Shown: piece after piece, positions 20,290-37,082 of the stretch
Layout of the letters: each line of letters opens with the position of its first letter
Numbering within the stretch: the stretch's first letter is position 1
Assembly: GCA_964442005.1 (NCBI GenBank)
Contig: CAYTWG010000004.1
Coordinates: 1,694-65,693 of the forward strand
Origin: an uncultured Bacteroides sp.
GTDB lineage: Bacteria > Bacteroidota > Bacteroidia > Bacteroidales > Muribaculaceae
Length of the DNA: 64,000 nucleotides
Direction of reading: 5' to 3'
Translations under genes and position numbers: made by a program
Notes under the pieces: model-generated
Database searches by the model: none
What the model was told of the DNA's origin: nothing
The model's input: the letters and a program-made list of their open reading frames with translations, nothing else

Positions 20290-20338
20290 GCGTAATGATT
20301 TATTAATTAAATAATAGTAGTTTTCTAAGATTATTTCA

Positions 20339-20346
20339 CAAAGATA
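20339..20346 (-). promoter_or_regulatory. -7 box TATCTTTG for the GLUG/T9SS gene
   Basis: The plus strand reads CAAAGATA, about 50 nt upstream of the ATG at 20289. Confidence 0.4.
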
Positions 20347-20420
20347 GCGCTTAATTTTAAATATCGGCAAAAACTTCTCACATTTTTATAATCAGACCGC
20401 CGATTTTTTATTTTTTTCCT

Positions 20421-20428
20421 TAACTTTG
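20421..20428 (+). promoter_or_regulatory. -7 box TAACTTTG upstream of riboswitch copy A
   Basis: Matches TAnnTTTG, about 35 nt before the conserved riboswitch core. Confidence 0.45.
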
Positions 20429-20454
20429 CACCCGTAAAAATATTTAACCATTTT

Positions 20455-20581
20455 ATCAATAATCCGGGAAACGCGTGTGAATCGCGTACTGTCGCGCAAC
20501 TGTGAATGAGACATCGCCGCCCGTCATGTCTCAAAGTCAGGAACCGGGAGGTAAACAGTCCTCAAGCATTGTCACTTTCGC
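20455..20581 (+). promoter_or_regulatory. cobalamin (B12) riboswitch, copy A
   Basis: Core GGGAAACGCGTGTGAATCGCGTACTGTCGCGCAACTGTGA matches the GGGAA..GGTG.AA..CC...C.G..CGC.ACTGT pattern. B12-box-like AGTCAGGAACCGGG. The 42-nt core is identical to copy B. Boundaries are approximate. Confidence 0.8.
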
Positions 20582-21658: not shown

Positions 21659-22381
21659 TCATTCAGCCGACGTCTGAAGTATCGCAAGCAAGTCAGGACG
21701 CGACTTGACCCTGATTTCATTTTGGTCGTAGTCTATGATGCCGCGCGACTTCATCGACTCCAGTGTCGCAAGAAACGACGTGCGCTGCACTCCGAACAAT
21801 GCGTACAAATCACGCTGACGGCACGTCAGGGCGATATCCTTTCCGCTCCGCTGTGTCAGCGCTATGATCCAGTAAGCGATACGTTCCTCCAGATTCCCTG
21901 TCGTAAGTGCCATGATACCGTCGATACCCTTCTGTGCGTTCATCGACAGTGTGTTCAGGAAATTAAACAGAAAGATACGGTCAAGATTCAGGATACGCAG
22001 GTAATCGCTCTTCTCGATTTGCAGGATACCCGTCGGTTCAAGTGCCGTGACCGTGCAAGGATACTGCGTCGTGCGACCGAAAAGAAACTCCGGAGCGATA
22101 ACGTCAGGCGCGTCAAGCGTCTGCGACACCGTGAAACGCCCGTTGTGATTACTTATCGAACTGCGCGCGCTACCTGAGATTATAAACTTGATGTGAGTGC
22201 AGGGATCACCCTCGGTGACGATCGTCTCCCCGCTCAGATATTTCAGAAAATGAAATTTCGTATTACCTATGATTTCCGATATTCGCTCATAGCTGGCGCC
22301 GTGAAACAGAGGCAGACCAGTGAGCATTTCATACATGCTGTCCATACGTTGTTCGTTCTTTTTACTATAAACAACACTCAT
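21659..22381 (-). CDS. Crp/Fnr-family transcriptional regulator
   Basis: Cyclic-nucleotide-binding-like N-terminus (LPLFHGASYERISEI...GETIVTEGDPC...) and a C-terminal HTH (RDLYALFGVQRTSFLATLESMKSRGII). Confidence 0.85.
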   Translation of the reverse strand: MSVVYSKKNEQRMDSMYEMLTGLPLFHGASYERISEIIGNTKFHFLKYLSGETIVTEGDPCTHIKFIISGSARSSISNHNGRFTVSQTLDAPDVIAPEFLFGRTTQYPCTVTALEPTGILQIEKSDYLRILNLDRIFLFNFLNTLSMNAQKGIDGIMALTTGNLEERIAYWIIALTQRSGKDIALTCRQRDLYALFGVQRTSFLATLESMKSRGIIDYDQNEIRVKSRPDLLAILQTSAE

Positions 22382-22423
22382 AATCGGAAAAAGTTAAATT
22401 TAATTATAGATTATTATTTCAAG

Positions 22424-22431
22424 CAAAGATA
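22424..22431 (-). promoter_or_regulatory. -7 box TATCTTTG for crp/fnr
   Basis: The plus strand reads CAAAGATA, about 43 nt upstream of the ATG at 22381. Confidence 0.4.
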
Positions 22432-22652
22432 CACACTTTTTATTAAAAATAACTTAATTCCTCCCATTTTACACGCTCCCCCCGCCATCCAAGAGCCATT
22501 CCCATCCCTCTGTGCGCGCCACAAGCGCCAACAATCGGAGAGCCGTCTCCACAACCCCTACATATAAAAATAAAAATCTTGCCCCCACACCGTTTTTCCC
22601 TTAATCGCCCATTTTTCCCTCCGTAAATTTGGAAAATCCTGATTTAAAGTAT

Positions 22653-22660
22653 TATATTTG
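22653..22660 (+). promoter_or_regulatory. -7 box TATATTTG (with TTTG at 22628-22631) for the AT-rich islet
   Basis: TAnnTTTG plus an upstream TTTG at 21-nt spacing, about 63 nt before the ATG at 22723. Confidence 0.45.
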
Positions 22661-22722
22661 CAAAAACGACCACCTTATACCCTCCCGCCATGAAATAAAA
22701 ACCGGTAACACTTATATAAATT

Positions 22723-23430
22723 ATGAAACAAGTCCATTTTATATTCATACTGCTGTTGTGTTGTCTGTCATCGTGCTGGTTGCTTTCTGATGTGAAAAGA
22801 TATCGCCTTAACGAAGAAGATCTAAAGTGGGTCTCTTTCTGTGATGTCAACGATACGATTATTTTCAAGAGTGATCATGATCATGCTCTTGACTCTTTCG
22901 TTGTGACCAGAGTCTATATTAATAACCTGCCGGATTCCATACAACCGACTAATACTTCTCTTTCTTCTAACTTTTTGTTTAGAGAAGCTTATGCCGAAGC
23001 ATCTATACACATGGCGATGTTAAAAAACGGTGAGTTAGTGGATACTGATGATGTGTTTGAGAAAAACAGATATCATGAGTGCTTTACTATAAGTTTCTGT
23101 TTACGAATATTGGATAGTCCGCATGACTTGCATTATACTTTTTTGGTAGGAGATATGCATATTCACTCGATTTCTGAAAAAACCATACAGGAATTAACTG
23201 TAGATGATTACCCCGGTTACCGGGATGATATTGTCATCCGCTTAGATGATGGTGAACCATATACTTTCAAGGAGGAACGTATTCAAAAATACTACACAGA
23301 TATATCTAATTTATACTGGAGCAGAGACTCCGGGCTAATATCTTATACGTTGGACGACGGAACCGTATACCAACGCTACAAACACATTAAGGCTGACAAC
23401 CAAAGCCATAAATGTCACCGCATCAAATAA
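22723..23430 (+). CDS. hypothetical lipoprotein (AT-rich islet gene 1)
   Basis: 235-aa ORF with lipobox LLLCCLSSC. No recognisable family. Very low GC. Confidence 0.6.
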   Translation: MKQVHFIFILLLCCLSSCWLLSDVKRYRLNEEDLKWVSFCDVNDTIIFKSDHDHALDSFVVTRVYINNLPDSIQPTNTSLSSNFLFREAYAEASIHMAMLKNGELVDTDDVFEKNRYHECFTISFCLRILDSPHDLHYTFLVGDMHIHSISEKTIQELTVDDYPGYRDDIVIRLDDGEPYTFKEERIQKYYTDISNLYWSRDSGLISYTLDDGTVYQRYKHIKADNQSHKCHRIK

Positions 23431-23450
23431 TTACAAATTTAAAACAGGAA

Positions 23451-23549
23451 CAATACCCTCTCACTTTATTAAACTAATGAACAAATGGACAAGCCCTGGA
23501 AAATAATAACCACTATCGCCACGTTAATCGTTCTTGTCGTCAGTTCAAA
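23451..23549. repeat. 99-bp direct repeat, copy 1
   Basis: CAATACCCTCTCACTTTATTAAACTAATGAACAAATGGACAAGCC...GTCGTCAGTTCAAA is identical to 24086-24184. It covers 34 nt of leader plus the first 65 nt of the ORF. Confidence 0.95.
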
Positions 23550-24075
23550 TATATGCAGCGGCAGAGTACGTATTATTCAAAATGACGCATATATGTCATT
23601 GTTTTATTCCTCTTATTTAGTGGAAACAATTCTTAATGAGGAAAACGGAGACAGTCTACTGGAGTATCTGATAGAAAATAATTTTTATATCCGGTATCCT
23701 ATAAAAATACCTATGACGGGGGATAAGGAAATAATGCCAATTATAGTTAAAGAAGATTCTGCACATATGAAAGCGATTTACAATCATCGTCGCCCTTTTG
23801 CCGATTCAGTTTTCCAGATTAATCCGGAGATAACCAACAGAATTGAGCACAATTTTATCGATCGACTCAACCGGCTTGAGACCATATATATCACCCCGCC
23901 GAATTATGAGTGTGGGGACATCTATTATTTACCTACCAATACAAGGCCCCTTATGAAAGATATTAGTGCACGTGACACTATCAAATATCCCGTTATGAAG
24001 GACTACTTCAGATATTGGATTGACAGTATCCGTCAGATGCCGTCCCGGAAGATAACACCTAGGCTAATATATTAA
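23485..24075 (+). CDS. hypothetical membrane-anchored protein (AT-rich islet gene 2)
   Basis: 196 aa with an N-terminal TM/signal anchor KIITTIATLIVLVVSS. No recognisable family. Confidence 0.6.
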   Translation: MDKPWKIITTIATLIVLVVSSNICSGRVRIIQNDAYMSLFYSSYLVETILNEENGDSLLEYLIENNFYIRYPIKIPMTGDKEIMPIIVKEDSAHMKAIYNHRRPFADSVFQINPEITNRIEHNFIDRLNRLETIYITPPNYECGDIYYLPTNTRPLMKDISARDTIKYPVMKDYFRYWIDSIRQMPSRKITPRLIY

Positions 24076-24085
24076 TCAGTTGAAT

Positions 24086-24184
24086 CAATACCCTCTCACT
24101 TTATTAAACTAATGAACAAATGGACAAGCCCTGGAAAATAATAACCACTATCGCCACGTTAATCGTTCTTGTCGTCAGTTCAAA
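24086..24184. repeat. 99-bp direct repeat, copy 2
   Basis: Perfect copy of 23451-23549, offset by 635 bp. Confidence 0.95.
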
Positions 24185-24265: not shown

Positions 24266-24844
24266 TTACGCCTGGATACAATCTATGTGAAGGATTCCGC
24301 CCCGTTGAGCACCGTAGTAAGCCGGGATGCGAATATCGCCACGCTGTATATCGCTCAGGTAGAGGGGATGTCCTACGCACACTGTGGTCAGCGTAAACGT
24401 ATCGCCAGGCTCTATCTTTATATTATTTGAGTTGATAACGCGGAATCGCATCACGCCTATACACTCTATCTCACACGATTTATTGTTATTCCATTTCAGT
24501 AACAATCTATCGCCGGGTTTTAGATTGTTGGAATTGATGATTGTTTTGCCAAGAAAGCCCGACTCCCCGTCAGGTACTCCCCCATCCTTAATGCTTGCCA
24601 TGAATGTTTCCCAATCTTTGTACTCGTTGTAACGGGCGAGTGTATTCAATGTCGTCAACGACGGGAAACTGGTATAGTTCACGTATCCCCATATTCGCTT
24701 TATCGATGATAAGCTCAATCTTCTGCCTGTTTTTATGTATATCTGATGTGATAATTCGTTGAACTCGGCAGGTGTCGAAGGTATAAAACCGAGATTGGAG
24801 TTTGTGATATTTACCAGAACTTTTAAAGCGGCTTTCATTTCCAT
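24266..24844 (-). CDS. hypothetical protein (last gene of the kinase operon)
   Basis: 192-aa ORF starting 4 nt after the kinase stop. The N-terminus (...LSLSSIKRIWGYVNY...) looks like a helical or HTH-like module. No family recognised. Confidence 0.55.
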   Translation of the reverse strand: MEMKAALKVLVNITNSNLGFIPSTPAEFNELSHQIYIKTGRRLSLSSIKRIWGYVNYTSFPSLTTLNTLARYNEYKDWETFMASIKDGGVPDGESGFLGKTIINSNNLKPGDRLLLKWNNNKSCEIECIGVMRFRVINSNNIKIEPGDTFTLTTVCVGHPLYLSDIQRGDIRIPAYYGAQRGGILHIDCIQA

Positions 24845-24848
24845 AATT

Positions 24849-25775
24849 TTATCGTGTTGTAATCATATATGCGACCAGTGAACCGAGCGTGAGACACACG
24901 CTAAGCATGATGTAGGTTAATAATCGGGATGACAGGGCTCTTGAAAAGAGACGTTGAATTGTAGATTTGGATGTCGGCAGCTTTATCCTTGATACCGAGT
25001 CAGGACGTTTTTCGGGGCGGGGATGGGCACACCTCCGGGCGACTTCGGCAAGCTCCTCATCATCGGTTGCCGCGGCAATCTCTTCCAATACGACACCCAA
25101 CGAATAGATATCCGCCACTGCCGAAGGTGCACTCTGCCCCGCAAATTGCTCGGGCGCCATATACTTCTTCGACCCGGCGGGATTTTTAAGCACGATGAAA
25201 TCATCGCTGTCTGAAAGACTGAAATCTATAATTTTTACCGTTCGGTTACTTTTGGCAATCAATATATTGGATGGCTTGAGGTCTCGATGAAATATCTGCT
25301 TATCATGCATGTAACCAAGCGCCTGCATCAACTGTGCGGCTATGGCACGGCCTGCCGGCAGTGACAGTTGTCCCGACTCGATAAGTGTTTTCAGTGTCAT
25401 GCCATCGATATACTCCATCACTATGACTTTTCCTATGTCTCCAACGGTTTCTATGCTGAATGTACGGCGGATGTAGGGATGGTCAAGCGTGATAGCGATT
25501 TCAAATTCTTTGGCAAGGGCAAGATTATAGACCGGGTCGTTACGTAACTCCTCCTTCAATCCTTTGAGAATATATCGCTTGCCGTATCGTGTTGCACTGT
25601 ATATCTCTGTATGCCCCGACAGCGACGTGTACAACGACCTTATATTGGCAAACTGATAAGAAAACAGACCTTCAAGGTCAAGTCGAGGCTTCTCAACATC
25701 ACCGTCTAGATAGAATGAGCTGTTTTCGTCCTCGTTTGACTTAAGGGCGCTATTGTCGATATTGCGATTATCCAT
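24849..25775 (-). CDS. Hanks-type serine/threonine protein kinase, C-terminally membrane-anchored
   Basis: Catalytic loop HRDLKPSNILI, DFS (DFG-like), YMAPEQ, and a lysine in RYILKGLK. C-terminal TM segment LLTYIMLSVCLTLGSLVAYMI. Confidence 0.85.
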   Translation of the reverse strand: MDNRNIDNSALKSNEDENSSFYLDGDVEKPRLDLEGLFSYQFANIRSLYTSLSGHTEIYSATRYGKRYILKGLKEELRNDPVYNLALAKEFEIAITLDHPYIRRTFSIETVGDIGKVIVMEYIDGMTLKTLIESGQLSLPAGRAIAAQLMQALGYMHDKQIFHRDLKPSNILIAKSNRTVKIIDFSLSDSDDFIVLKNPAGSKKYMAPEQFAGQSAPSAVADIYSLGVVLEEIAAATDDEELAEVARRCAHPRPEKRPDSVSRIKLPTSKSTIQRLFSRALSSRLLTYIMLSVCLTLGSLVAYMITTR

Positions 25776-25780
25776 TGACT

Positions 25781-27445
25781 TTATTTCTGAAATTCGACGA
25801 TTTTACTGAACAGACCCCACTGTTTATGATTACGATAGACATCTTTACATCCTGCCGGAACATGGAGGACACTCCCGCTCGGAAACGGGAATGACCTGTT
25901 GTAAAATGCATTGGTAGTCGTTAACGGGGGGATGCTTGCTTTTATATATAAATCCGTGATACTCGTTCCGTCAAATGCGTAATTTCCGATATACGCCGTG
26001 CCGCTCCCGAGTGTGACAGTAGTCAGTGAGACGCAGCCCTGGAACATTGCCTCGGAAATATTGGTTAGATTATCGGGAAGAGTTATTGATGTCAATGAAG
26101 TCCCGGCAAATGCTCCGCGACTTATGGTGGTAACCGACGACGGAATTTCGAGACCGGTGATTGACGTGCCGTAAAAGGCATTCTCCCCTATTGCCGTAAT
26201 TGTCTCGGGCAGCCGGTAGTCGCCCGTTTTACCGAGAGGGAACCACAGGATTTCCGTGGCGTGATTATTAAACAGCACCCCATCGATTGATGTGTAATTC
26301 TCATTTGCCGCTGACACTTCAATGGCTTCAAGAGCTGTACAACCGCTCGATGGCGACAGGCTTTCGATACCCGCCGGTATCAGCAGATCTTTCAGAGCGG
26401 TACAGTTGGCCAATGCATCTGTCTGCAACCGGGTTGCCGATGCCGGCAACTCTATTTTTTGCAGTCTCACACAGTTGGCAAGCAGATCGGTGGTGATAAT
26501 ATCTGTCTCCGTATAACGGCTGCCGTCATACGTAGCACCCCCCTCCACTATATTCACTCCACTCAGGTTAACCTCAGTTACAGCACATTCCATATCGGGA
26601 CTGTCAGGCATACGTGGCGCTCCGAGCATGAATCGGAGAAAACGGAAATCATCGCCATTCATTTCGCCGGCTATAGTGACACATTTCAAGTCAATCGATT
26701 TATGGCGGTCAAAGAGAGATGAAAGAGTGCCGGCTTTTTGAAGCATGAGACTGTTTAGTGTAGTGAATGTGACGGGGTCTCCTTGTCTCTCCCCTATCGA
26801 GTTGCAGGCAAATGATGTAAGTGTGTATTCCGTATTGATTTCCAATCCGGTTATATTGAGGCGATGCTTGCCTTCAGTCAAGTCCTCAACCGGTAGAGCG
26901 ATGCGTCGCGCCAATCCTTGCCGGCTGTCAGTAACATCACATCCCGCACTCAGCAACGCCTCTCCGCCATCCCCGGTGATGTCTAACGAGACTATGACCC
27001 CTACCGGTCCTGACGCGAGTATTTCTATCGCCGAGACCGAGGGCAACTCGTTGGGCAACGTGGAAAATTGTATTTCGTTCGACCGGAGAGATGCAGTCGA
27101 GGTGCCCCCGGTTAAATAGCAGGCGTAGGTAGTGCCCGCTTTGAGATTCCGCAGATTCAATGTCTGAATCTCGGCTTCCGGGTCAGAGACATTATATACA
27201 TTGGTGACATCTCCCGGCTCACCGTAGTAAAAAGCAAGATGTGTCAGATTGGTCCGTCCGTTTTTATGTACCACGGCTGTTATTTGAGCCTCGGTACGCG
27301 TTATGTCCGTCACTCCCGTAATTTCAAGCACAGGTTCCCTGTTGTCAGGTTGGTTCCGGTCGGAGCAACCCGGCGTCAGGACTATTATCAGCATCGTCAC
27401 AACGAGCAAACTGATTTTATGAAACGATATTTTCTGCACGACCAT
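25781..27445 (-). CDS. BspA-type leucine-rich-repeat lipoprotein with two Ig/FN3-like N-terminal domains
   Basis: Start trimmed to MVVQKISFHKISLLVVTMLIIVLTPGC. The C-terminal half has LRR_5-like units (LP.TITAIGENAFYGTSITGLEIPSSVTTISRGAFAG...). Confidence 0.8.
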   Translation of the reverse strand: MVVQKISFHKISLLVVTMLIIVLTPGCSDRNQPDNREPVLEITGVTDITRTEAQITAVVHKNGRTNLTHLAFYYGEPGDVTNVYNVSDPEAEIQTLNLRNLKAGTTYACYLTGGTSTASLRSNEIQFSTLPNELPSVSAIEILASGPVGVIVSLDITGDGGEALLSAGCDVTDSRQGLARRIALPVEDLTEGKHRLNITGLEINTEYTLTSFACNSIGERQGDPVTFTTLNSLMLQKAGTLSSLFDRHKSIDLKCVTIAGEMNGDDFRFLRFMLGAPRMPDSPDMECAVTEVNLSGVNIVEGGATYDGSRYTETDIITTDLLANCVRLQKIELPASATRLQTDALANCTALKDLLIPAGIESLSPSSGCTALEAIEVSAANENYTSIDGVLFNNHATEILWFPLGKTGDYRLPETITAIGENAFYGTSITGLEIPSSVTTISRGAFAGTSLTSITLPDNLTNISEAMFQGCVSLTTVTLGSGTAYIGNYAFDGTSITDLYIKASIPPLTTTNAFYNRSFPFPSGSVLHVPAGCKDVYRNHKQWGLFSKIVEFQK

Positions 27446-27452
27446 GATCTCT

Positions 27453-28448
27453 CTATAATTTACCCAATTTAATTCCGACACCGATACATCCATACCAGTC
27501 TCTTCCTTTGATGCTCGCGACCGAGGCTGAGACGACCAGTCGATTGAAGGTTAGAATCGCACCGGCTTCCAGTGAGACTCCTCGACATGAATATCCTCGG
27601 TTCGTGACCCATCCTCCGCCCTCTGACGGCGCTAATTCCCATGCCAGTTTATTGTCGCCGAAACCTATTCCTTCAAATATAGCGACTCGCTGCGACAACC
27701 GGTGGGCGGCTCCTGCATTTACCATGAAGAATGACTTTCGGGCTGCCCCTGAATAGAATGGCAGCTCTCCGGCAATCAATCCCTCTTTATCACATTCTCC
27801 AATCCCCTCGCCGACTTTACCGAAATTGCTTGACAGATGTACGAAACCGCCATGACGCTTCATTATCGCTACCATGATACCGCCGGCAGCTACTGTCGAT
27901 TTTCCGCCGGCTTCTGCCATCAGAAACACTTCAGACGTTAACGGTACAGGGACTGTCCGTGGAAGGACCATTACTGTATCTACCCGCGTCATCACCACGG
28001 TATCGACAACAGTTTTCACTACCGGCACTACCGGAGTCACCGTTTCTGCTTTTGCCGTTACCGGCGAGGCGATAACGAGTTCTGCGGTAATGTGGCTACT
28101 TATACGCGATGGTAAGATATAATCACGCAGGACGCCCCATTGTGAATGTTTTATTGTGATTTTCTTTGTGCCATGGGGCACATACAGCCATATTTCGCCG
28201 ACTTTATCTTCCCGTTTCACTATACCCAACGGAGTCGAGAACACAAAATCATCCGGCGCCATGACCTTGATGAGCCCGCAGTCCTCTCCGTTCCGGTCTT
28301 GCACGGGATTGATAAATGCCGTGACATCGTTGGGAAGCACACGGAATGATGATACGGAAAATTCCTGTGCACCGACCGGCTGAATACCGGCACATACCAT
28401 CAACAAAATTAAGATCGCTTCAAAATATGTAGCTGCGGATTCTTTCAT
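27453..28448 (-). CDS. hypothetical secreted protein, N-terminal beta-sandwich-like plus C-terminal beta-barrel-like region
   Basis: Start trimmed to MKESAATYFEAILILLMVCAGIQPVGAQE (signal peptide). V/T/P-rich linker. The C-terminal about 150 aa show alternating hydrophobic and Gly-rich strands. Confidence 0.55.
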   Translation of the reverse strand: MKESAATYFEAILILLMVCAGIQPVGAQEFSVSSFRVLPNDVTAFINPVQDRNGEDCGLIKVMAPDDFVFSTPLGIVKREDKVGEIWLYVPHGTKKITIKHSQWGVLRDYILPSRISSHITAELVIASPVTAKAETVTPVVPVVKTVVDTVVMTRVDTVMVLPRTVPVPLTSEVFLMAEAGGKSTVAAGGIMVAIMKRHGGFVHLSSNFGKVGEGIGECDKEGLIAGELPFYSGAARKSFFMVNAGAAHRLSQRVAIFEGIGFGDNKLAWELAPSEGGGWVTNRGYSCRGVSLEAGAILTFNRLVVSASVASIKGRDWYGCIGVGIKLGKL

Positions 28449-28452
28449 GAAG

Positions 28453-29310
28453 TCATTCGAGATTAAAACCACTGATGTCAATCAACTCTTCATTGTCCAG
28501 GTCGATAGTAGCGGTAGGCTGCCAGGTGCGCACGTGTATCAAGGGCATTGATGGATTCCTGAAATCCCACAGAAGAAATAGATAACCGTCATCGCTGTAC
28601 TGTCCGCTTGAATACTGTTGTCGGAGTGTGACTCCATAGATACCGTCAGCGGTTGGATGCCTCATTATCTTAAAATCAGAAAAGTCCACGTTGATATCCT
28701 TACCCGAATTAAAGATTTTTTCAAGCTTTTCAAGATAGGATTGCTTGGTTCTGACAATATAATTTACCTTGACCGGGTCACCGATCATGTCGGTTGACTT
28801 GCGTGACGTGTTGACTACCTGACCCACGATGATGAGTGCATTATCACTGAATACCTGACGGATGAAATCAATATCACGGGTGGTATATGACGTGCGCAGA
28901 TGCTCGCAGTAACTCAATATCTTGTGACGGCTTATCGAGTCGGTCTCCTCAAGATGTCCGTTAAGCACCTTGATTGCCTCTGTCCGGAAAGGATGGCTGA
29001 CGTTGATGTATTGCAACTCGATATCCTTGAAGCGGGTGGCATGAGTCGGGTGCTGTAGATCCGTCTCCTCCGCTGCCGCCTTTTCCTGTACCACGGTATC
29101 TGCTTCCTCTGTCGGCTGATCAGCCGGCGACTGTTCCTCAACAGTCCCGGGAGCCGACTCTTCGGGTGTCAACGTATCGGGTGACACTTCAGCGGTTGTT
29201 TCAGCCGATAAAACAAGAGGAGGCCGCCTGTAAAGCCAGGCTGCCCATCCTCCAAGTATTATAGCAATAATAATTAATAGAATATTAAGTTTCTTTCTTC
29301 TTGATGACAT
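28453..29310 (-). CDS. hypothetical single-pass membrane protein
   Basis: Start trimmed to MSSRRKKLNILLIIIAIILGGWAAWLY (TM). Acidic/Pro-rich linker followed by a globular domain of about 190 aa. Confidence 0.55.
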   Translation of the reverse strand: MSSRRKKLNILLIIIAIILGGWAAWLYRRPPLVLSAETTAEVSPDTLTPEESAPGTVEEQSPADQPTEEADTVVQEKAAAEETDLQHPTHATRFKDIELQYINVSHPFRTEAIKVLNGHLEETDSISRHKILSYCEHLRTSYTTRDIDFIRQVFSDNALIIVGQVVNTSRKSTDMIGDPVKVNYIVRTKQSYLEKLEKIFNSGKDINVDFSDFKIMRHPTADGIYGVTLRQQYSSGQYSDDGYLFLLWDFRNPSMPLIHVRTWQPTATIDLDNEELIDISGFNLE

Positions 29311-29323
29311 CAATATTAATTGT

Positions 29324-30217
29324 TTATAGATTCCAATTTGTAATCTCGCCGCCAACTTCGATCTTGACTTGTTCGGGGTTCTTGTCTATCACGAGATTCA
29401 CAATGTGGTGAATACCCGGTTTAAACAGGAATTTGCTTTCATAAAGGAAAGACACACCGTTCATCTCTATTTCGATAAGCGGTACGCGATTCTCCAGTCG
29501 CTGCGGCACAATGATTGCCGAATAGCTCGTCGGGCTATCCTGATGCGCCAGGATAGTCTTGCGGAGTCCGCGCACATCCTTGGTGGCAACGCCCGCCGAC
29601 AAGTCTAAAGTCGCTTCCGGGCAGGTATTATGAATCGACACCTTGGCTATCGCGGGTATATCGCCCTCATAATCCTCCCCTTTGATAAGTCGGATTGTGA
29701 GCTTGCTCATGATATGTTTGAACTGAAGATTGACGGTTGAATTTGAGGCTACGACTCCACGGGCTGAAGCATAGAGATAATCTGATGCTTCATAGCCACT
29801 CGTTACGCCCCCGCTTGTAGCGCGCTGATCGGTGCTGACTTCGATGGGTAAGTCTTCTATTGAACTGATGTCTCCCACGCGAGGATAGTAGGCATACACG
29901 TTATATGTACCCCTCTCCCAGTATAGTGTGCGTGAAGATGTCCAGGTCGACCCGGTAAATGTCAGCCCTTCATTATTGACGGTATTGCCACTGATTTCAA
30001 GCGGCTTCTCAGTCTCCGACACGAAGAGTCCCACTACATCTCCCGCTTCAAAGGCGGTCTCGGTAGCACGAGATTGCGACGGATGGCTGAAATTGAAATT
30101 CATGGCGATTTTTCCCTCTGAAATGATGTCAGGCTCAAGTGTTGAATCGGCAGAGCACGATACGAGTGCTCCGGTCAGTAAGATAACGCTTGCGATTGAA
30201 TATATATTGTGTTTCAT
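29324..30217 (-). CDS. fimbrillin-family (Mfa-like) lipoprotein
   Basis: Lipobox LTGALVSC. F.AGD.VGLFV, YEASDYLYA and KHIMSKLTIRL patterns shared with the other two fimbrillin-like modules in the operon. Confidence 0.75.
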   Translation of the reverse strand: MKHNIYSIASVILLTGALVSCSADSTLEPDIISEGKIAMNFNFSHPSQSRATETAFEAGDVVGLFVSETEKPLEISGNTVNNEGLTFTGSTWTSSRTLYWERGTYNVYAYYPRVGDISSIEDLPIEVSTDQRATSGGVTSGYEASDYLYASARGVVASNSTVNLQFKHIMSKLTIRLIKGEDYEGDIPAIAKVSIHNTCPEATLDLSAGVATKDVRGLRKTILAHQDSPTSYSAIIVPQRLENRVPLIEIEMNGVSFLYESKFLFKPGIHHIVNLVIDKNPEQVKIEVGGEITNWNL

Positions 30218-30246
30218 CGTTAACTATTCTTTAATTAACCAAATTT

Positions 30247-33200
30247 TTACTTATGCGATTTAATGGCTCGTTTCTTGCTTGAGGCGAGCGGGTCCCCTTT
30301 ATGGATCACAGGCGGCATAGAGTACTCGGTAATCCTGTTGGAACCGCCGAGGTCAACGCTACGCGATGTCTCGGTAAGCACACGCTTATCGTTAGCGACA
30401 AATTCCTCAAAGTTATATTCCTCGCCGGCATAGCGCTTGATGCGCTTGACGATGCTCTCGCGGCTGATGGTGCTGTAGTAAGGGATGTCGTTGTTCATGC
30501 AGCTGTTCTGCTCTGAGCGGAATACTCCGCGGGTGTGCATGTAGCCCCCCTCGTAGATATCGACTACGTCGCTGTAACGCGGGTCAAAGATCAGGTGGCT
30601 CCATCCCACTGCATGCATTTTGCCGGTGAGTTCAAGATTGTCATACCATCCGAGTGACTTTGCAGAATTGAAAGCATCAACGTGTCCACAACAGGTGCAG
30701 CCGCAGAAATCTATGAAAGCATTGTGGTAAATATACTCGTCACCGAGCTTACCAAATCCGTGACCACCTGCCTCGTGCTGCATCACACCTCGCGAGTCAA
30801 GCGGATAGCCGTAGTCGCTCTTGGGACAGAAGGCGATTGCCGCACCTGATTCCCACATCTGGCATATTCCGCCGTAATCAGTGCTATTGGGTATTATGAT
30901 AATCAATGTCTGGTTCAGATTCTGCGGGGAAACTGTCGGTGCGGCAAGAACATAGTCAAACACCTCGTCATAGTCGCATCGCAGTCCCACGCCGCCGGTA
31001 TAGGTCGTATTAAAGCGGTTGTAGCGTATGGTGTTGATTGATCCTACACCCGACTCGGTCGACAGCGGGAACGCGGTATAGACATTGAAGTAGTCGCGAT
31101 AGGTTGTGTAGGGTTCGATGCCGAAGAAATGCTCCACACCCTCTTTGATGTCCTTGAGATAAGTTCCCTCAGAGATTTCTTTTGCGTCATAGCCGTCGCC
31201 GAGGAACACCAGATTGATGCCTCCGGTATTGCCTCTGGTTGCTTTTTGTAATGACAGGAATTCATCTTCGCCATATTCGTATCCATATTGTGTCACGTGG
31301 CACTTGTGAGTGTACTCTTTATCCTTCAGCAAAAAGACGATATCGCCTTCGCGGGTTTCAGCCGTCGGGCAAGACTTGATGGTAAGAGTTATTTCATTTT
31401 TCTTGCTGCCTGAGTTTTGCGAAAGCTCACACCAGTCAGGCTTGGAAGCAACCACCCAGTCTCCCTCGGCATCAATGACAAGTGTCTGCTTGTGCTCGGT
31501 GCCTAAGGCGCATGCTACTGACGGGCGGCATACCAACTCATGGTGAGCGGCGATTCGTTTGAAGTCACACCATCCGGGAGCGACCTGATACTGAGCGATA
31601 GCCGATTCCGGTACTTCCACCGTAAAATTATCTTTCGCGACTCCATTGAAAGCTCCCTCCTGAATATATGCCGGAAGAGCTCCCTTACATATTATCTTAC
31701 CCAAGCCGTAGCAACCCTCGAAAGCGCCTCCGACTTCAGCTTCATAACAGATACTTTCAAGTCCTTCGGGAAATATCACGCCCTCAAGACTGCTGCAATG
31801 AGAGAAAGCTCCGGCGCCGATAGAAATCACATTTTCCGGTATTTCAACCGTACCCATCAGTCGCCAGTTGTAGGCTAAACATTTTTCACCTATGGTGCGC
31901 AGTCCTTTGGGAAGCACTAACTCACCTGAAAAATCATCGTTATAGAAAGCACTGTGGCTTAATACTTCAAGATTTTTTGGCAAGCAAAGTTCCCCCTTGA
32001 AGCCATTGTTAGAAAATGCATCGGCACCGATTGCGGTAATTCCATCATGCAGGGTCAAAGTGCCCCCCATCCAACAACCATCGAAGCAGCGGCGAGGAAT
32101 GTTCGTAACTCCCTGAGGTATTTCAAGATTACCTGACAGATTCTTACATTCCCCAAAAGTTTCCACGCCTAATGATTTGAGATTCTCAGGCAGACGAAGT
32201 GATCCGTAGAAGTTTTTACAATCATAAAAACTCTGTTTCTCAATCTCTTCGAGACTTTCAGGTAAGACAAGCTCACACGTAAAACGACACTCACGGAAAG
32301 CCGCTTCGCCTATTCGCTTCAATGTCGTTGGTAAAGACAGGTTCCCGGTCAGATTCATACAACCATAAAAAGCACCTCTTTCAATAATCTCAACTCCTTC
32401 AGGAATAATCAGAGACCCGGATAAATGAGAACAACAGTAAAACGCCCTTACACCAATCCCCTTTAACTTGTCGGGCAAGACAAGAGTTATAAGCGTCAGT
32501 TTTTCTTCTAATGCGGAATTCGGAATGATATCATCCACAACTTTTACATCCTTGAGGTTCAGAGCGGCAAGATGTGGCATCTCATTTTTCATCACGGCAA
32601 AGTCTCTGGAATCTATTGTGCCTGTCAATTTAATGTTTTTTACTTCGGCAATATTCTTGCCGGCTGCTGCAATACACTCGTCAAGTGTTCCCGGTTCCGG
32701 CACGTCGATGACTATATACTCTTTGGAAGTGGCGTCGTGGCTGACGAGGTCGTTCTCCCACGGTGTGATGCTCTCGCTGATGAGCGTGAGGGTATAGTCG
32801 CCGGTAGATACTTTCTTATCTACCTTGATACCGAAGTTACTCATCTTTCCGGCTACATACTCAAAGTCCTCGTTCTTGGAAAATTTATAGGGGATGCCAC
32901 CGAGAGTAATGGTGAAAAGTGTAGTTCCCGAAGGGATAATCTGAGGCACAACGATAGCACGCCATTCGTCGCCACGCTTGGTGGGGATAATTGAATTTTT
33001 ACCTACCTCGCCGTCAGGCTTGACCTCGCCGGTTGCAAGGTTGATGACAGCATCCTGGATTGTGTTGGATACGAGCACTTGTTTCTCGAGGTCAGTCCAC
33101 TCGCCTGCCGCAAAACCACTACCTTCCACGAGAGTCACGCGGGCATTAGCCATGCGGTGGGTGAGCGGGAGTCGAATCTCGTTGGTTGTAGGCTCGACTC

Positions 33201-33690
33201 CGCCCACTTTCCCCCATAGAAAATCTGATGCCTCATATTCGCCCATCGTTCCGTCATTGTAGGTACGGGCTTGGTTGACCCGGACTGTAAATCGATAGTT
33301 ATTTACGTCATCGGGCGATCCGAATGGATAGTAACCATAGACATCAATACGTGTGTGTTTATCTTTCCAATACAAGTCGTAGGCTGAGTTCCAGCGATAT
33401 GCAGCCTCATCAAAGGTGTGGCGCACGTTGTTGCCGCGATTGCCTTTTGATTGCAATGTGCCGGGCACGGTTCCTTCATAATCTACGATATAAACGCCAA
33501 TCACGTCACCGTCGGCAAAGCCGTCATCATTGGCACGGGTGACTGACTCCTGGTTTATCTGTCCCGCGAGCGTGATAAGATTCTGTCCGTCGGCGGGTTG
33601 ACCGGACTGGTCATAGTTGATATCGGAGCAAGCTGCAAGCATCGTCGCCGCAACTATTCCGGCTGTATATAGATATCTTTTCATAATCAA
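30247..33690 (-). CDS. chimeric surface lipoprotein: fimbrillin-like N-domain + BspA-type LRR + BACON-like module + M64 (IgA-peptidase-like) metallopeptidase domain
   Basis: 1147 aa. Lipobox MLAAC. Fimbrillin pattern (DGFADGDVIGVYIV..., YEASDFLWGKV, LTHRMANARVTL). About 370 aa of LRR_5 units. DWVVASKPDWCELS...ITLTIK is BACON-like. INLVFLGDGYD...FNVYT...HEAGGHGFGKLGDEY is M64-like. Confidence 0.8.
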   Translation of the reverse strand: MIMKRYLYTAGIVAATMLAACSDINYDQSGQPADGQNLITLAGQINQESVTRANDDGFADGDVIGVYIVDYEGTVPGTLQSKGNRGNNVRHTFDEAAYRWNSAYDLYWKDKHTRIDVYGYYPFGSPDDVNNYRFTVRVNQARTYNDGTMGEYEASDFLWGKVGGVEPTTNEIRLPLTHRMANARVTLVEGSGFAAGEWTDLEKQVLVSNTIQDAVINLATGEVKPDGEVGKNSIIPTKRGDEWRAIVVPQIIPSGTTLFTITLGGIPYKFSKNEDFEYVAGKMSNFGIKVDKKVSTGDYTLTLISESITPWENDLVSHDATSKEYIVIDVPEPGTLDECIAAAGKNIAEVKNIKLTGTIDSRDFAVMKNEMPHLAALNLKDVKVVDDIIPNSALEEKLTLITLVLPDKLKGIGVRAFYCCSHLSGSLIIPEGVEIIERGAFYGCMNLTGNLSLPTTLKRIGEAAFRECRFTCELVLPESLEEIEKQSFYDCKNFYGSLRLPENLKSLGVETFGECKNLSGNLEIPQGVTNIPRRCFDGCWMGGTLTLHDGITAIGADAFSNNGFKGELCLPKNLEVLSHSAFYNDDFSGELVLPKGLRTIGEKCLAYNWRLMGTVEIPENVISIGAGAFSHCSSLEGVIFPEGLESICYEAEVGGAFEGCYGLGKIICKGALPAYIQEGAFNGVAKDNFTVEVPESAIAQYQVAPGWCDFKRIAAHHELVCRPSVACALGTEHKQTLVIDAEGDWVVASKPDWCELSQNSGSKKNEITLTIKSCPTAETREGDIVFLLKDKEYTHKCHVTQYGYEYGEDEFLSLQKATRGNTGGINLVFLGDGYDAKEISEGTYLKDIKEGVEHFFGIEPYTTYRDYFNVYTAFPLSTESGVGSINTIRYNRFNTTYTGGVGLRCDYDEVFDYVLAAPTVSPQNLNQTLIIIIPNSTDYGGICQMWESGAAIAFCPKSDYGYPLDSRGVMQHEAGGHGFGKLGDEYIYHNAFIDFCGCTCCGHVDAFNSAKSLGWYDNLELTGKMHAVGWSHLIFDPRYSDVVDIYEGGYMHTRGVFRSEQNSCMNNDIPYYSTISRESIVKRIKRYAGEEYNFEEFVANDKRVLTETSRSVDLGGSNRITEYSMPPVIHKGDPLASSKKRAIKSHK

Positions 33691-33726
33691 TACTAACTGG
33701 TTTATATTTATACTTTGTCAGATCGT

Positions 33727-34656
33727 TTAATCGGCAGTTCCACCATTATCGACACCATTATCTTCCCATGGAGTGATATTGACATTGACGCCATTGGATG
33801 TCTTGTCGAGGACAATTGTAAATTTGTGGCTTCGGGCACTCTCGAATGAGAAAGCCTTATTGAAGTTGAAGTCGCGTCCGTCAACTGTCACAGTAATGAG
33901 ATTTCCCTCACCTACTGCCTGCGGAACGATAAGTGCTTTATAAGAATTACCGTCTTTCAGTGGTATCACGGACGAAGGATTGCCTATGGGTGTCACCGCT
34001 CCGGTGGCGATATCAACGGTCGAGTTACACTTGACTCCATTGATTTTGACTGACACATTGGATGCCGCGATAGATTCTTTGGTAAATCCGTTGCCTGCCT
34101 CCAAGCTGATCTCGATACGGCTCATGACGTGGTTGGCGGGGATTACGGTTGCCGATGATGTGGGAGACACGTTGAGTGTTTTGCCGGTCATGAAGTCGGA
34201 CGCTTTGTAAGCCGCTTCGGTCGACTGATTCTCTTTCACGGCAAAGGGGTGAGCATTGACCGACTTGACATCAGCGTAGGGATAATAGATGTAAAAATCG
34301 GCATGGGTTTCCTTATTGAGCCAATAGATGGGTGAGTCGGGATTCCACTGACCATTGTAGGTGTGGCGCATATTGTTGACGTGGTTTCCGGTATTGGAAA
34401 GCGTTCCGGCTGTTGTTCCGTTATAGTTGACAACGTAAAGACCGATGCAATCACCCGTCTCAAAGCCATAGTCGGTGGCACGGGATTCCTGTATCAACGG
34501 ACTTATCCTGATTTCAATATTTTCATCCGACGGATCGGTCGGAACAACGGGAGGTGTGGGGACAGGCTCGTCAATTGATTCTTTAGAACAACTTAATAAT
34601 GTCATGGCAAGTAAAGTGCTTAACGTAATAAGCGGAGAAAATGATAATGATCTCAT
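33727..34656 (-). CDS. fimbrillin-family (Mfa-like) lipoprotein (first gene of the operon)
   Basis: Lipobox TLLSC. YGFETGDCIGLYVV, YKASDFMTGKT and NHVMSRIEISL patterns. Confidence 0.75.
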   Translation of the reverse strand: MRSLSFSPLITLSTLLAMTLLSCSKESIDEPVPTPPVVPTDPSDENIEIRISPLIQESRATDYGFETGDCIGLYVVNYNGTTAGTLSNTGNHVNNMRHTYNGQWNPDSPIYWLNKETHADFYIYYPYADVKSVNAHPFAVKENQSTEAAYKASDFMTGKTLNVSPTSSATVIPANHVMSRIEISLEAGNGFTKESIAASNVSVKINGVKCNSTVDIATGAVTPIGNPSSVIPLKDGNSYKALIVPQAVGEGNLITVTVDGRDFNFNKAFSFESARSHKFTIVLDKTSNGVNVNITPWEDNGVDNGGTAD

Positions 34657-34682
34657 AATATTGATTTTTGAATTGTTTGGTG

Positions 34683-34690
34683 CAAAAATA
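34683..34690 (-). promoter_or_regulatory. -7 box TATTTTTG for the fimbrillin-LRR-kinase operon
   Basis: The plus strand reads CAAAAATA, 27 nt upstream of the ATG at 34656. Confidence 0.4.
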
Positions 34691-34877
34691 GAACAAAAGA
34701 AAAATGCATCAAAATTTTCCGAAGTTCAAAAGAGTTCAAGTTTTTTAAACACACTACCGCCGGCAAAAAGTTGTTTACAAGTGAGCTCTGATCAAAGAGA
34801 AATCATGTATATACTTGTTTAGAACAATTTACGACTATTAAACGCAATTCTTAGAGAGGAGTATAAAAATTTTTTCT

Positions 34878-34885: not shown

Positions 34886-34916
34886 CCATCATAAAAATAT
34901 TAATCAGTTAACACTA

Positions 34917-35048
34917 ACAAATAATTCGGGAAACGCGTGTGAATCGCGTACTGTCGCGCAACTGTGAACGAAACGATGTAGCCCCCCCGGGGCTGTTTCA
35001 AAGTCAGGAACCGAGGGGTAACCAGTCCTCAAGCACCGTTACTTTCGC
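34917..35048 (+). promoter_or_regulatory. cobalamin (B12) riboswitch, copy B (btuB leader)
   Basis: Same conserved core and B12-box as copy A. It directly precedes a TonB-dependent receptor, the classic context. Boundaries are approximate. Confidence 0.85.
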
Positions 35049-37082
35049 ATGAAAAAGTTACTGCTGTCAGCCCTGTATATTATTACAACCGTGCCATTTA
35101 CCGGTGCTGTCGACTCCTACGGTGACGCCGAGGCAACGTATCGTTTCTCCGACTCGATAATGGCGCTCAACGAGGTGACAGTAGTCGAGAACCGAAAGAA
35201 AGAAATCATCCGTTCTCAGTCGATTGACGCCTCTGAGATCGAGAGGCTGAGCGCCCACTCCGTTGCCGACGCGCTCCGTTACTTTTCCGGAGTACAAGTC
35301 AAGGACTTCGGAGGCATCGGAGGCATCAAGACAATCAACATCCGATCAATGGGCTCTCACCATGTGGGGGTGTTCTACGACGGCATACAGCTCGGAAACG
35401 CCCAGAACGGGCAGATCGATCTCGGACGCTACTCCCTCGACAACATCGAGGAAATATCGCTCTACAACGGACAGAAAAGCAATATATTCCAGAGCGCAAA
35501 GGACTTCGGCTCGTCGGGCACTGTCTATCTGCGCACACGCCGTCCACGATGGAAAGGCGACGAACGATCACGCCTGACCGCTCAGTTCTCGACCGGAAGC
35601 TTCGGTCTGCTGCATCCCGAGATCGTCTACGAGCACCGCCTGTCTCACAACGTCAGTCTCTCAGCATCGGCGGGATATACCGGTGCCGACGGACGATACC
35701 GGTTCCGCTACCGCCGCCTTAACCTTGACAACACCGTCGCCTACGACACCACCGCAACCCGTCACAACGGCGACATCGAAGCCTTGCGCGGAGAGCTCTC
35801 CCTCTTCGGATTCATGGAACAGGGCAGCTGGAGCAGCAAGATATACTATTACGACTCTGAACGCGGCATCCCCGGTGCCATAGTCAACAATGTCTTTCGC
35901 AACGGCGAGCGACAGTGGGACCGCAATTTCTTCGTTCAGGGCACGTTCGAATATCTTTTCTCCTCGACCTATCACCTTCGGGTCAACGGCAAGGCGGCTA
36001 TCGACTACATGCACTATCTGCGCGACGACCCCAAAGAGCTGTATATCAATAACCGATACCGTCAGCAGGAAGCATATCTATCAGCGGCAAACCTGTTCCG
36101 CATCAACTCCTGGTGGAATGTGACCGCTTCAGTCGACCTCCAGTGGAACCGCATGACCGCTGACCTCTCCAACTTCCTCTACCCCATACGACTCACTGAG
36201 ATGGTAGCCGTGGCGACATCGGTCGACCGCGGTGCGTGGAGCGCACAGGCAAGCCTGCTCGGCACATTCCTCCAGGACCGAACGGGAAACGCCTACACCC
36301 ACGGTCGCCGCACATCGTGTCGAGCCAACCTCTCCCCCGCCCTGTTCGCCTCTTGGAAACCGCTCGGCACGGCTTCATGGCACGTCACGGGATTCATCAA
36401 GCGCTCGATGCGCATGCCCACCTTCAACGACCTGTATTACACCGAAATAGGCAACAAGGAACTTGAACCTGAGTACACGATGCAATACAGTCTCGGGAGC
36501 GACATAACCGTTCCGATAAACCGGAAATTTATCCGACAACTCGACTTCCAGGGCAATTTTTACTTCAATCGGGTCACAAACAAGATAATAGCCTACCCCG
36601 CCGGACAGCAGTTCCGCTGGACGATGCTCAATCTCGGGACCGTAGACATCACCGGAGCCGAGCTGTCGGCCGAGGCTCTGTTCAACGCCGGCACGGTCGA
36701 CATCCATCTGCGTGGCAACTATACCTTTCAGCGCGCCATCGACGTGACCGACCGCGAGGACCTTTATTACCGGCATCAGATTCCTTACATACCTCGCCAC
36801 GCGTTCTCCATAGCCGGCGGTGCCGACTGGCGCGGATGGACTCTGAATTACTCGTTCATCTACACCGGACTGCGGTACAGCGCCCAGGAAAACATCCCCG
36901 ACAATCTCGAGCAGCCATGGTACACCCACGACATGTCGCTCTTCAAGACCGTGCCGCTCCGACGCGTATCACTCCGTGTAGGCGCCGAGATAAACAATCT
37001 CTTCAACCAGGACTATGAGGTCATACGCAACTACCCCATGCCCGGACGTAACTTTAAAATAACACTCAAAGTAACAATATGA
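35049..37082 (+). CDS. btuB: TonB-dependent receptor, BtuB-like corrinoid transporter
   Basis: 677 aa with a signal peptide, a plug domain (VADALRYFSGVQVKDFGGIGGIKTINIRSMGSHHVGVFYDGIQL) and a beta-barrel. It sits under a B12 riboswitch. Confidence 0.85.
   Translation: MKKLLLSALYIITTVPFTGAVDSYGDAEATYRFSDSIMALNEVTVVENRKKEIIRSQSIDASEIERLSAHSVADALRYFSGVQVKDFGGIGGIKTINIRSMGSHHVGVFYDGIQLGNAQNGQIDLGRYSLDNIEEISLYNGQKSNIFQSAKDFGSSGTVYLRTRRPRWKGDERSRLTAQFSTGSFGLLHPEIVYEHRLSHNVSLSASAGYTGADGRYRFRYRRLNLDNTVAYDTTATRHNGDIEALRGELSLFGFMEQGSWSSKIYYYDSERGIPGAIVNNVFRNGERQWDRNFFVQGTFEYLFSSTYHLRVNGKAAIDYMHYLRDDPKELYINNRYRQQEAYLSAANLFRINSWWNVTASVDLQWNRMTADLSNFLYPIRLTEMVAVATSVDRGAWSAQASLLGTFLQDRTGNAYTHGRRTSCRANLSPALFASWKPLGTASWHVTGFIKRSMRMPTFNDLYYTEIGNKELEPEYTMQYSLGSDITVPINRKFIRQLDFQGNFYFNRVTNKIIAYPAGQQFRWTMLNLGTVDITGAELSAEALFNAGTVDIHLRGNYTFQRAIDVTDREDLYYRHQIPYIPRHAFSIAGGADWRGWTLNYSFIYTGLRYSAQENIPDNLEQPWYTHDMSLFKTVPLRRVSLRVGAEINNLFNQDYEVIRNYPMPGRNFKITLKVTI

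Follow-up and report, generated by a model that had tools for sequence, protein, structure and literature searches.

Why should a block of genes for fimbrillin-like and leucine-rich repeat (LRR) surface proteins end in a Hanks-type Ser/Thr kinase and a small protein that belongs to no classified family? The question is raised by a locus of an uncultured Muribaculaceae bacterium, of which a contig stretch of 64,000 nt (the window) was analysed. The block studied here, 24266-34656, is filled by eight open reading frames (ORFs), all on the minus strand and numbered g1 to g8 in the order in which they would be transcribed; their coordinates are collected in Table 1. Among gut bacteria, the Muribaculaceae and other Bacteroidales are dominant; whether they adhere, how the immune system recognises them (by immunoglobulin A [IgA] as well), and which niche they occupy are decided by their surface proteins. 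To our knowledge, the known means of regulating pilin-like and LRR adhesin genes in Bacteroidales are two-component systems, extracytoplasmic function (ECF) sigma factors, and invertible promoters, and the locus suggests an undescribed mode of surface control in this order. We report that the kinase g7 and the protein g8 form part of a gene module that recurs across Bacteroidales together with a tandem TTGAAC repeat lying in a fixed register to the promoter, and we are highly confident that the module constitutes a functional unit that has been conserved and has an operator of its own.

Species-representative genomes were scanned with a profile of g8, and the 80 loci that this returned were subjected to our own ORF and hidden Markov model (HMM) analysis. 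All 80 came from Bacteroidales. The complete colinear cluster of eight genes was present at 31 of them; most of the remaining Muribaculaceae-type loci are truncated where the locus or contig ends, and the distant loci hold rearranged versions. Where flanks were compared, in Muribaculum intestinale and in contigs whose kinases are 50 to 60% identical, the same eight genes stood in the same order between unrelated neighbours. A kinase of the g7 type lay within 2.5 kb, in either orientation, of nearly every g8 gene that had enough flanking DNA (54 of 57). The distant loci, whose g8 proteins are 28 to 40% identical, come from rumen Bacteroidales, Phocaeicola faecicola, and Bacteroides sp. CAG:530 and differ in gene order and orientation. 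Most of them retain g8, the kinase, the barrel protein represented by g5, and an FN3-LRR lipoprotein that shares the N-terminal domain of g6, a domain common to the LRR lipoproteins encoded directly upstream of g8 in these loci. Four rearranged architectures also contain the g1-g2-g3 triad. The module is also present as many paralogues, sometimes two per 10 kb (loci L064 and L085). On this comparison of gene neighbourhoods, the conserved core is the kinase, g8, the OmpX-like protein, and the FN3-LRR lipoprotein, and the fimbrillin and M64 genes are frequent accessories.

An earlier sequence-only reading of this DNA had proposed that the surface proteins are coupled to the Hanks kinase, with the reservation that the association might be fortuitous. 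The coupling is real, recurring in at least six gene arrangements across Bacteroidales; the 31 colinear loci, their different flanks, the rearranged recurrences, and a natural gene fusion described below indicate that the association did not arise by chance. The same reading did not recognise the combination as a described system, and the literature searched, which included work on M64 peptidases in Bacteroides, Hanks kinases in Bacteroides, and Cds6, yielded no account of it.

The eight genes are tightly packed. Over-extended starts were trimmed to M16 (29310) in g4, to M12 (28448) in g5, and to M17 (27445) in g6, after which the intergenic gaps are 36, 29, 13, 4, 7, 5, and 4 nt; the gene coordinates and gaps given in the sequence-only reading were thereby reproduced. 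The TAnnTTTG box that it had placed ahead of the block was found there as well, with a TTTG element 19 nt upstream. TTTG and TAnnTTTG constitute the Bacteroides sigma-A promoter consensus, which has reportedly been worked out in earlier studies of that genus. The window has seven copies of the strict bipartite pattern, TTTG-N17-23-TAnnTTTG, where 0.74 would be expected, and one of them lies ahead of g1. Judged against the ORF list, the sites are at, or shortly upstream of, ORF starts, which makes the strict pattern a useful promoter finder for this genome. Internal promoters or terminators, named in the sequence-only reading as features that would split the block, were looked for at the level of sequence: the pattern scan of the window gave no strict bipartite promoter inside the eight genes, and no convincing intrinsic terminator was found, including after g8. 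A reading of the promoter as invertible, and hence phase variable, was rejected, as it has no flanking inverted repeats. The base composition of the block is ordinary. The eight genes are best explained as one self-contained operon of the Muribaculaceae bacterium, whose only products predicted to be cytoplasmic are g8 and the bulk of the g7 kinase.

Alignment of the DNA upstream of g1 from related clusters revealed a tandem direct repeat with the consensus tTGAACCaatTTGAACc. The window has a single copy, TTGAACtcttTTGAAC, even when one mismatch is allowed across the 64 kb; 33 nt separate its end from the -7 box, which lies downstream. Upstream regions of at least 110 nt were available for g1 at 21 loci. 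An exact TGAAC-N5-TGAAC was found 49 to 99 nt from the g1 start codon at 18 of these, which comprise every Muribaculaceae-type cluster in the set; the remaining three, of different architecture, carry the variant TTGAACCAAATTTGA(T/G)TC with one or two mismatches. Over 1.33 Mb of loci we counted 44 exact copies, compared with 3.0±1.6 in dinucleotide shuffles (a 14-fold excess). The distance from the repeat to a TAnnTTTG box was 32 to 34 nt at 23 of 45 sites and exactly 23 nt at a further 8, so that 31 of 45 are phased. A spacing of 23 nt is one helical turn less, and such a fixed register would be expected if an activator bound next to the -33 element or in its place.

The repeat also follows the module when the module is rearranged. 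Nearly all copies in the 1.3 Mb of related loci adjoin module genes. At loci that have no fimbrillin genes, the repeat lies between the LRR gene and g8 or directly after the kinase gene, and at two loci (L080 and L084) it precedes LRR-protein genes. Paralogues of g8 that have no kinase beside them still lie 47 to 75 nt from a repeat, which appears to serve the divergent gene. By sequence, then, the repeat is the predicted operator of the kinase/g8 module, conserved, phased with the promoter, and travelling with both genes. The repeat is new here. Two rumen Bacteroidales loci (L063, 9922-9947; L078, 9912-9937) have three TTGAAC half-sites with 10-bp spacing in the intergenic region between a g6-like gene and g8; the -7 box is 23 nt (or 13 nt) downstream.

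In the AlphaFold model of g8, a five-helix N-domain is joined by a disordered linker to a beta C-domain. The sequence-only reading had left this protein unclassified, and searches of Pfam (also member by member, with E up to 10), NCBIfam, and PADLOC likewise gave nothing significant. An exhaustive profile search (E of 1e-3 or less) yielded a family of 2801 cluster representatives at 50% identity, none of which carries an annotation name in any source database. Among 131 representatives with a median identity of 30%, conservation peaks in the third helix at S-x-S-T-L-K-R-L-W-G-Y, where K49, R50, W52, G53, and Y54 are near-invariant; a serine in the linker is also conserved. Such a near-invariant helix in an otherwise divergent family fits the conserved TTGAAC half-site. 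A direct tie to the kinase is provided by P0217, a natural g8-kinase-transmembrane (TM) fusion of 554 aa found on two contigs. Another fusion, P0316 (429 aa), joins g8 to a CutC domain and may be an artefact of gene calling. The pattern S-x-S-T-L-K-R-L-W-G-Y...P...TL..LA was one that we took to resemble XRE domains, a resemblance that hhalign did not support: comparison with a small, hand-typed set of nine XRE sequences gave a probability of 0.8%, and an XRE-type helix-turn-helix (HTH) is not claimed. The closest matches of the N-domain in the PDB, TP901-1 CI (E about 1) and the Sleeping Beauty transposase HTH (E 0.6), are below threshold.

The partner of g8, the kinase g7, scored 112.6 bits against the Pkinase profile (cut-off, 31.7), and its nearest relative among solved structures is PknB (1e-24). 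Residues K71, E90, H163, D165, K167, N170, D184, APE207-209, D222, and R257 are at least 90% conserved across 78 sequences; the DFG position reads DFS (D184-F185). Residues 285 to 303 of the 308 form the sole hydrophobic segment, in agreement with the sequence-only reading, which had described a C-terminal tail anchor as the only membrane element of the kinase. The closest relatives of g7 are from Muribaculaceae, the M. intestinale protein being 60% identical. Past the TM helix, the distant kinases have 27 to 262 residues, whereas the Muribaculaceae kinases have 0 to 15, with one at 42. Since distant relatives carry longer tails after the TM helix, the simplest reading is that the tail anchor of g7 is a derived state. 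The inner-membrane protein g4 may supply a periplasmic domain in trans to the tail-anchored kinase, a suggestion that we keep as conjecture because the g4 HMM does not match kinase tails. The idea that the periplasmic tails of the longer kinases are themselves the missing g4 domain was tried and dropped, the g4-family HMM having given no new matches.

Two further products of the operon would place the module in the envelope. The sequence-only reading had described g4 as a single-pass membrane protein with an acidic, proline-containing linker, and we found a single N-terminal TM helix (residues 8 to 26), an acidic Pro/Thr-rich linker, and a C-terminal NTF2-like domain. The Cds6_C match on which the last assignment rests is barely at threshold (27.1 bits; cut-off, 27), and PDB profiles gave no match to g4. 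Homologues of g4 in P. faecicola (L082, 14349-16112) and Bacteroides sp. CAG:530 (L087, 11659-13476) have 587 to 605 aa, twice the length of g4, and WG_beta_rep repeats precede their NTF2-like domain. For g5 no family match was found in Pfam. The AlphaFold model (predicted local distance difference test [pLDDT] score, 85.7, with barrel strands in residues 171 to 330 above 90) ends in an 8-stranded barrel of the Ail/OmpX type, in line with the beta-barrel-like C terminus seen in the sequence-only reading. Foldseek matched the barrel to Ail (6e-7) and OmpX (2e-6) with target-normalised TM-scores of up to 0.66, and a profile search against OmpX gave an E value of 0.011. Orthologues of g5 mostly end in F; the protein in the window ends in GKL.

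These observations suggest a transcriptional circuit. In our proposal, g8 would bind head-to-tail to TTGAAC-N4-TTGAAC just above the -33 element and, from there, activate the sigma-A-type promoter of the operon. The kinase g7, anchored in the inner membrane beside g4, would phosphorylate g8 and set its activity; candidate phosphosites are the conserved S44 and T47 of the S-x-S-T-L-K-R-L-W-G-Y helix and S95 of the disordered linker. The membrane proteins g4 and g5, and perhaps the LRR lipoprotein g6, would connect the circuit to the envelope or supply an envelope signal. With g7 and g8 closing the operon, the circuit would regulate its own expression. The roles of g8 as repeat binder, of the kinase in phosphorylating g8, and of g4, g5, and g6 in supplying the signal are ones that we infer, that of g8 because no known fold or HTH was detected in it. 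The sequence-only reading had instead suggested that phosphorylation controls the assembly or activity of a surface appendage. This is not supported as it was put, and we found no sign of such control; a TTGAAC repeat that keeps a fixed register to the promoter and accompanies the g8/kinase pair speaks for control of transcription instead. We regard the full mechanism as evenly poised between being right and being wrong.

Several results weigh against this circuit. Its weakest link is g8 itself, in which Pfam, NCBIfam, PDB profiles, and Foldseek revealed no recognisable DNA-binding domain or HTH; PDB sequence profiles gave nothing significant for the whole protein or for the N-domain alone, and Foldseek gave no match below an E value of 0.001 in PDB or BFVD. 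The Gly-rich loop of g7 is degenerate, reading SLSGHTEIYSATRYGKRY; it departs from GxGxxG, and only G65 is conserved. When 11 or more matches of 12 are required, the repeat is missing from about half of the distant loci. A reverse scan of metagenomes for the repeat with a phased -7 box found, among the 120 matches listed, 9 with a g8 homologue nearby and 3 more with g1-g2-g3 directly downstream (12 of 120 with module genes in total); most of the 120 listed had no g8 or module genes in the retrieved DNA, which was often short. One 116-kb metagenome contig (L142) has three near-identical copies of repeat, promoter, and 5' leader within 7 kb. Repeats outside g8 neighbourhoods mean either that the regulon extends further or that another protein reads the repeat. 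Two of the L142 copies precede small ORFs with signal-peptide-like starts.

The second of these options would make an unlinked, general Bacteroidales transcription factor the protein that binds the operator, with g8 acting as a kinase adaptor or as a substrate with some other role. The many listed metagenome matches that have no g8 nearby, three of them on L142 alone, are what such a factor would produce, and a g8 with no known HTH suits it equally well. A general factor would not, however, be expected to have a single site in the 64-kb window, nor to have nearly all of its sites in the related loci beside module genes, and the short distance between the kinase-less g8 paralogues and a repeat is also against it. 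We consider this explanation unlikely. Much the same low probability attaches to post-translational control, which comes near to the proposal of the sequence-only reading and by which the kinase and g8 would act on the export, processing, anchoring, or turnover of the lipoproteins and some other regulator would serve the repeat. Here the lack of a detectable DNA-binding fold in g8 is joined by the co-conservation of g4 and g5, which look like parts of an envelope scaffold, the one having an NTF2-like domain in the periplasm and the other a periplasmic domain and an outer-membrane barrel. Yet loci that have none of g1 to g4 still have the repeat alongside g8 and g7, the lipoproteins mature outside the cytoplasm whereas g8 and the kinase domain lie within it, and the block encodes nothing recognisable as a secretion or sorting component.

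Kinases resembling g7 also occur in anti-phage systems, and g7 might be a PD-T4-6/MADS-like defence kinase that merely adjoins surface-protein genes. It does match the PADLOC models PD-T4-6 and mad6 (E values from 2e-37 to 1e-35) and the NCBIfam model MAD6. The matches cover only residues 55 to 265, however, so that what is matched is the generic kinase domain; MAD6 scores 97 bits where NCBIfam requires 460, the remaining seven proteins match no PADLOC defence model, and synteny with surface proteins is conserved across families. A defence kinase is, on these grounds, very improbable. Least credible of all is that unrelated genes came to lie side by side fortuitously, which is contradicted by the conserved order within different flanks, the rearranged recurrence, the g8-kinase fusion, and the shared operator.

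The proposed kinase-g8-operator circuit can be compared with known regulatory systems, of which PknH-EmbR or AfsK-SARP is nearest to it in function. PknH-EmbR of Mycobacterium tuberculosis and AfsK-AfsR/SARP of Streptomyces are pairs of a Hanks kinase and a regulator, the PknH-EmbR target being a cell-surface operon; SARP-type activators bind tandem direct repeats with a spacing of about one helical turn, next to or overlapping the -35 region. In the present module, too, a single-pass membrane Hanks kinase is encoded beside a cytoplasmic two-domain partner, a cell-surface operon is the would-be target, and direct repeats lie at the upstream promoter element, here 33 or 23 nt above the -7 box. 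In contrast to those regulators, neither an OmpR/SARP winged helix nor a BTA or FHA domain was detected in g8, nor any similarity to solved structures; the kinase has lost its extracytoplasmic domain, and phosphorylation of g8 and its binding to DNA are predictions. Because g8 fails the domain test of the family, we say that it would work like PknH-EmbR or SARP systems, not that it is a member of them.

A second comparison is with the trans-envelope signalling of Bacteroides, in which a SusC-like transducer, an anti-sigma factor, and an ECF sigma factor are encoded next to the target operon. The module resembles it in that outer-membrane, single-pass inner-membrane, and cytoplasmic parts are encoded beside would-be target surface genes. 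It differs in that TonB-dependent transducers, anti-sigma factors, and sigma-70-family proteins are all absent, and a Hanks kinase and an orphan protein make up the cytoplasmic step.

A bolder proposal is that g6-g5-(g4)-g7-g8 makes up a new signalling pathway of Bacteroidales that spans three compartments. In it, an LRR lipoprotein of the cell surface and the OmpX-like protein may relay an envelope or host signal to the Hanks kinase, which may then switch the g8 family (at least 2,800 sequence clusters, with no Pfam entry) to activate promoters with phased TTGAAC repeats; in outline, this may parallel the LRR receptor kinases. We think this extended pathway doubtful at present. If it were true, Bacteroidales would have a further major form of surface regulation next to hybrid two-component systems and ECF/anti-sigma pairs. 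The narrower kinase-g8-operator circuit, if true, would assign a role to the orphan g8 family and to the Ser/Thr kinases of Bacteroidales. It is open to testing, consisting as it does of a kinase, a large family so far found only in Bacteroidales, and a sharply defined operator, and M. intestinale and P. faecicola are cultured carriers.

Four products of the operon are probably surface lipoproteins, to judge from their sequences: two fimbrillin-like proteins (g1 and g3), a fimbrillin-LRR-BACON-M64-like chimera (g2), and an FN3-LRR protein (g6). The Pfam search bore out the domain calls made in the sequence-only reading, namely, fimbrillin in g1 to g3, LRR, BACON, M64, and Pkinase. In g2, Mfa_like_1 spans residues 51 to 311 (E 4e-53, full profile), LRR_5 begins at about residue 388, BACON spans 744 to 801, and the M64-like domain runs from 821 to about 1100. 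Lipoboxes were identified in g1 (LLSC, Cys23), g2 (LAAC, Cys21), g3 (LVSC, Cys21), and g6 (TPGC). For g6, the earlier description as an Ig/FN3-LRR lipoprotein holds, with a strong LRR_5 match; the fn3 match is faint in g6 itself and clearer in its orthologues.

Type V pili of the FimA/Mfa1 kind occur in Porphyromonas gingivalis and in gut Bacteroidales, and their pilins are cleaved by Arg-specific proteases between R and A of an S/T-R-A motif. By sequence, g1, g3, and the N terminus of g2 resemble these pilins in being full-length Mfa_like_1 lipoproteins with a lipobox and the S/T-R-A motif, a candidate cleavage site, which stands at the start of the Pfam fimbrillin domain in each (SRATD at 58 in g1, TRAND at 51 in g2, and SRATE at 49 in g3), and g2 resembles a tip subunit bearing effector domains. 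In contrast to known loci, which are governed by the FimS/FimR two-component system and are not known to be governed by a Hanks kinase, the block has no member of the stalk (P_gingi_FimA) or anchor (Mfa2/FimB) pilin families that Pfam or NCBIfam could detect among the eight proteins, and polymerisation of g1 to g3 is conjectural here. The NCBIfam and Pfam search gave g3 a weak match to the FimD tip adhesin (E 2e-4), far below the cut-off. With no stalk or anchor family detected, the label of a type V pilus locus goes too far. The LRR_5 arrays of g2 and g6 are like those of the BspA-type LRR proteins of Tannerella and Bacteroidales, from which they differ in being lipoproteins tied to a kinase/g8 module. 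An unlinked BspA-type LRR_5 protein of 879 aa with a C-terminal DUF6383 is encoded elsewhere in the window (55355-57994, minus strand), with no TTGAAC repeat or kinase gene nearby.

The C-terminal domain of g2 matches Peptidase_M64 with 55.1 bits (cut-off, 26) and aligns with 3P1V and 4DF9 across the whole peptidase domain (chain residues 157 to 408). The family motif HEXXHXXXGXXD has been reported for all bacterial M64 clusters (2025 study, PMC12402451). This canonical catalytic motif is absent from g2, which reads HEAGGHGFGKLGD at the zinc site, the second His being one residue further from the Glu. Among the g2 orthologues examined that exceed 600 aa, distant ones included, nearly all keep the altered motif, QHEAGGHGFG(K/H). 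The closest known relatives of the domain are the M64 metallopeptidases, among them BF3526 of B. fragilis, BACOVA_00663, and the ThomasA IgA protease (PMC12402451). The alignment with the B. fragilis and B. ovatus enzymes, 3P1V and 4DF9, takes in GxLxDEY as well as the cysteines that adjoin the second zinc site; unlike the M64 metallopeptidases, g2 has HEAGGH as its zinc motif, and the domain is fused to a pilin-like module, LRRs, and BACON. The sequence suggests that HExxxH is either a changed metal site or a sign of a non-catalytic binding domain. Of the "protease display" proposed in the sequence-only reading, the M64 domain is upheld by Pfam and by the alignment, and the protease role is uncertain because the canonical HEXXH is absent.

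Table 1. Coordinates of the operon genes, promoter elements, and repeats (window positions, except for the last three rows, which refer to the L142 contig)
Feature	Position	Strand	Description and evidence
g1	33727..34656	-	Fimbrillin-like lipoprotein, 309 aa; Mfa_like_1 3e-61, full profile (Pfam)
g2	30247..33690	-	Lipoprotein, 1147 aa; Mfa_like_1, LRR_5, BACON, and Peptidase_M64 (Pfam)
HEAGGH motif of g2	30760..30777	-	aa 972-977; HExxxH, one residue longer than the M64 zinc motif HEXXH
g3	29324..30217	-	Second fimbrillin-like lipoprotein, 297 aa; Mfa_like_1 5e-60, full profile (Pfam)
g4	28453..29310	-	Predicted bitopic inner-membrane protein, 285 aa; hydrophobicity and Pfam Cds6_C
g5	27453..28448	-	Signal peptide, beta-sandwich 30-127, disordered linker, predicted 8-stranded outer-membrane barrel 171-330 (AlphaFold)
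g6	25781..27445	-	FN3/Ig-like and BspA-type LRR lipoprotein, 554 aa; LRR_5 4e-34 (Pfam)
g7	24849..25775	-	Hanks-type Ser/Thr kinase, 308 aa, tail-anchored; Pkinase 3e-32 (Pfam)
g8	24266..24844	-	Basic, predicted cytoplasmic protein, 192 aa; candidate repeat-binding regulator; isoelectric point 8.9; AlphaFold pLDDT 87.4
-7 box	34683..34690	-	TAnnTTTG (tatttttg); sole strict bipartite promoter match in 24266-34750
-33-like element	34710..34713	-	TTTG promoter element, 19 nt upstream of the -7 box
Tandem direct repeat	34724..34739	-	TTGAACtcttTTGAAC; TTGAAC-N4-TTGAAC, 10-bp period; candidate activator-binding site
L142 repeat-promoter copy	3826-3883	-	No g8 in the 14.6 kb retrieved
L142 repeat-promoter copy	6811-6868	-	As above
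L142 repeat-promoter copy	10501-10558	-	As above

The surroundings of the operon in the window are of other kinds. Cobalamin riboswitches were detected on the plus strand at 20405-20563 and 34890-35027, with Rfam scores (34.8 and 31.7 bits) barely above the gathering threshold. The first precedes a gene for a DUF4465 protein; the second precedes a TonB-dependent receptor gene (35049-37082), followed by one for a DUF5074 protein. The operon is wedged between these two B12-uptake loci, which are unrelated to it. The stretch at 22000-24100, convergent with g8, has a low GC content (39.6%, compared with about 50%) and two plus-strand ORFs (22723-23430 and 23485-24075) that have no Pfam match; it has a strict promoter match of its own at 22628-22660. 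A protein of 745 aa encoded at 18133-20370 on the minus strand matched only a GLUG motif. Another strict promoter match, at 20339-20371, overlaps the annotated start of this protein, a start that was therefore probably over-called.

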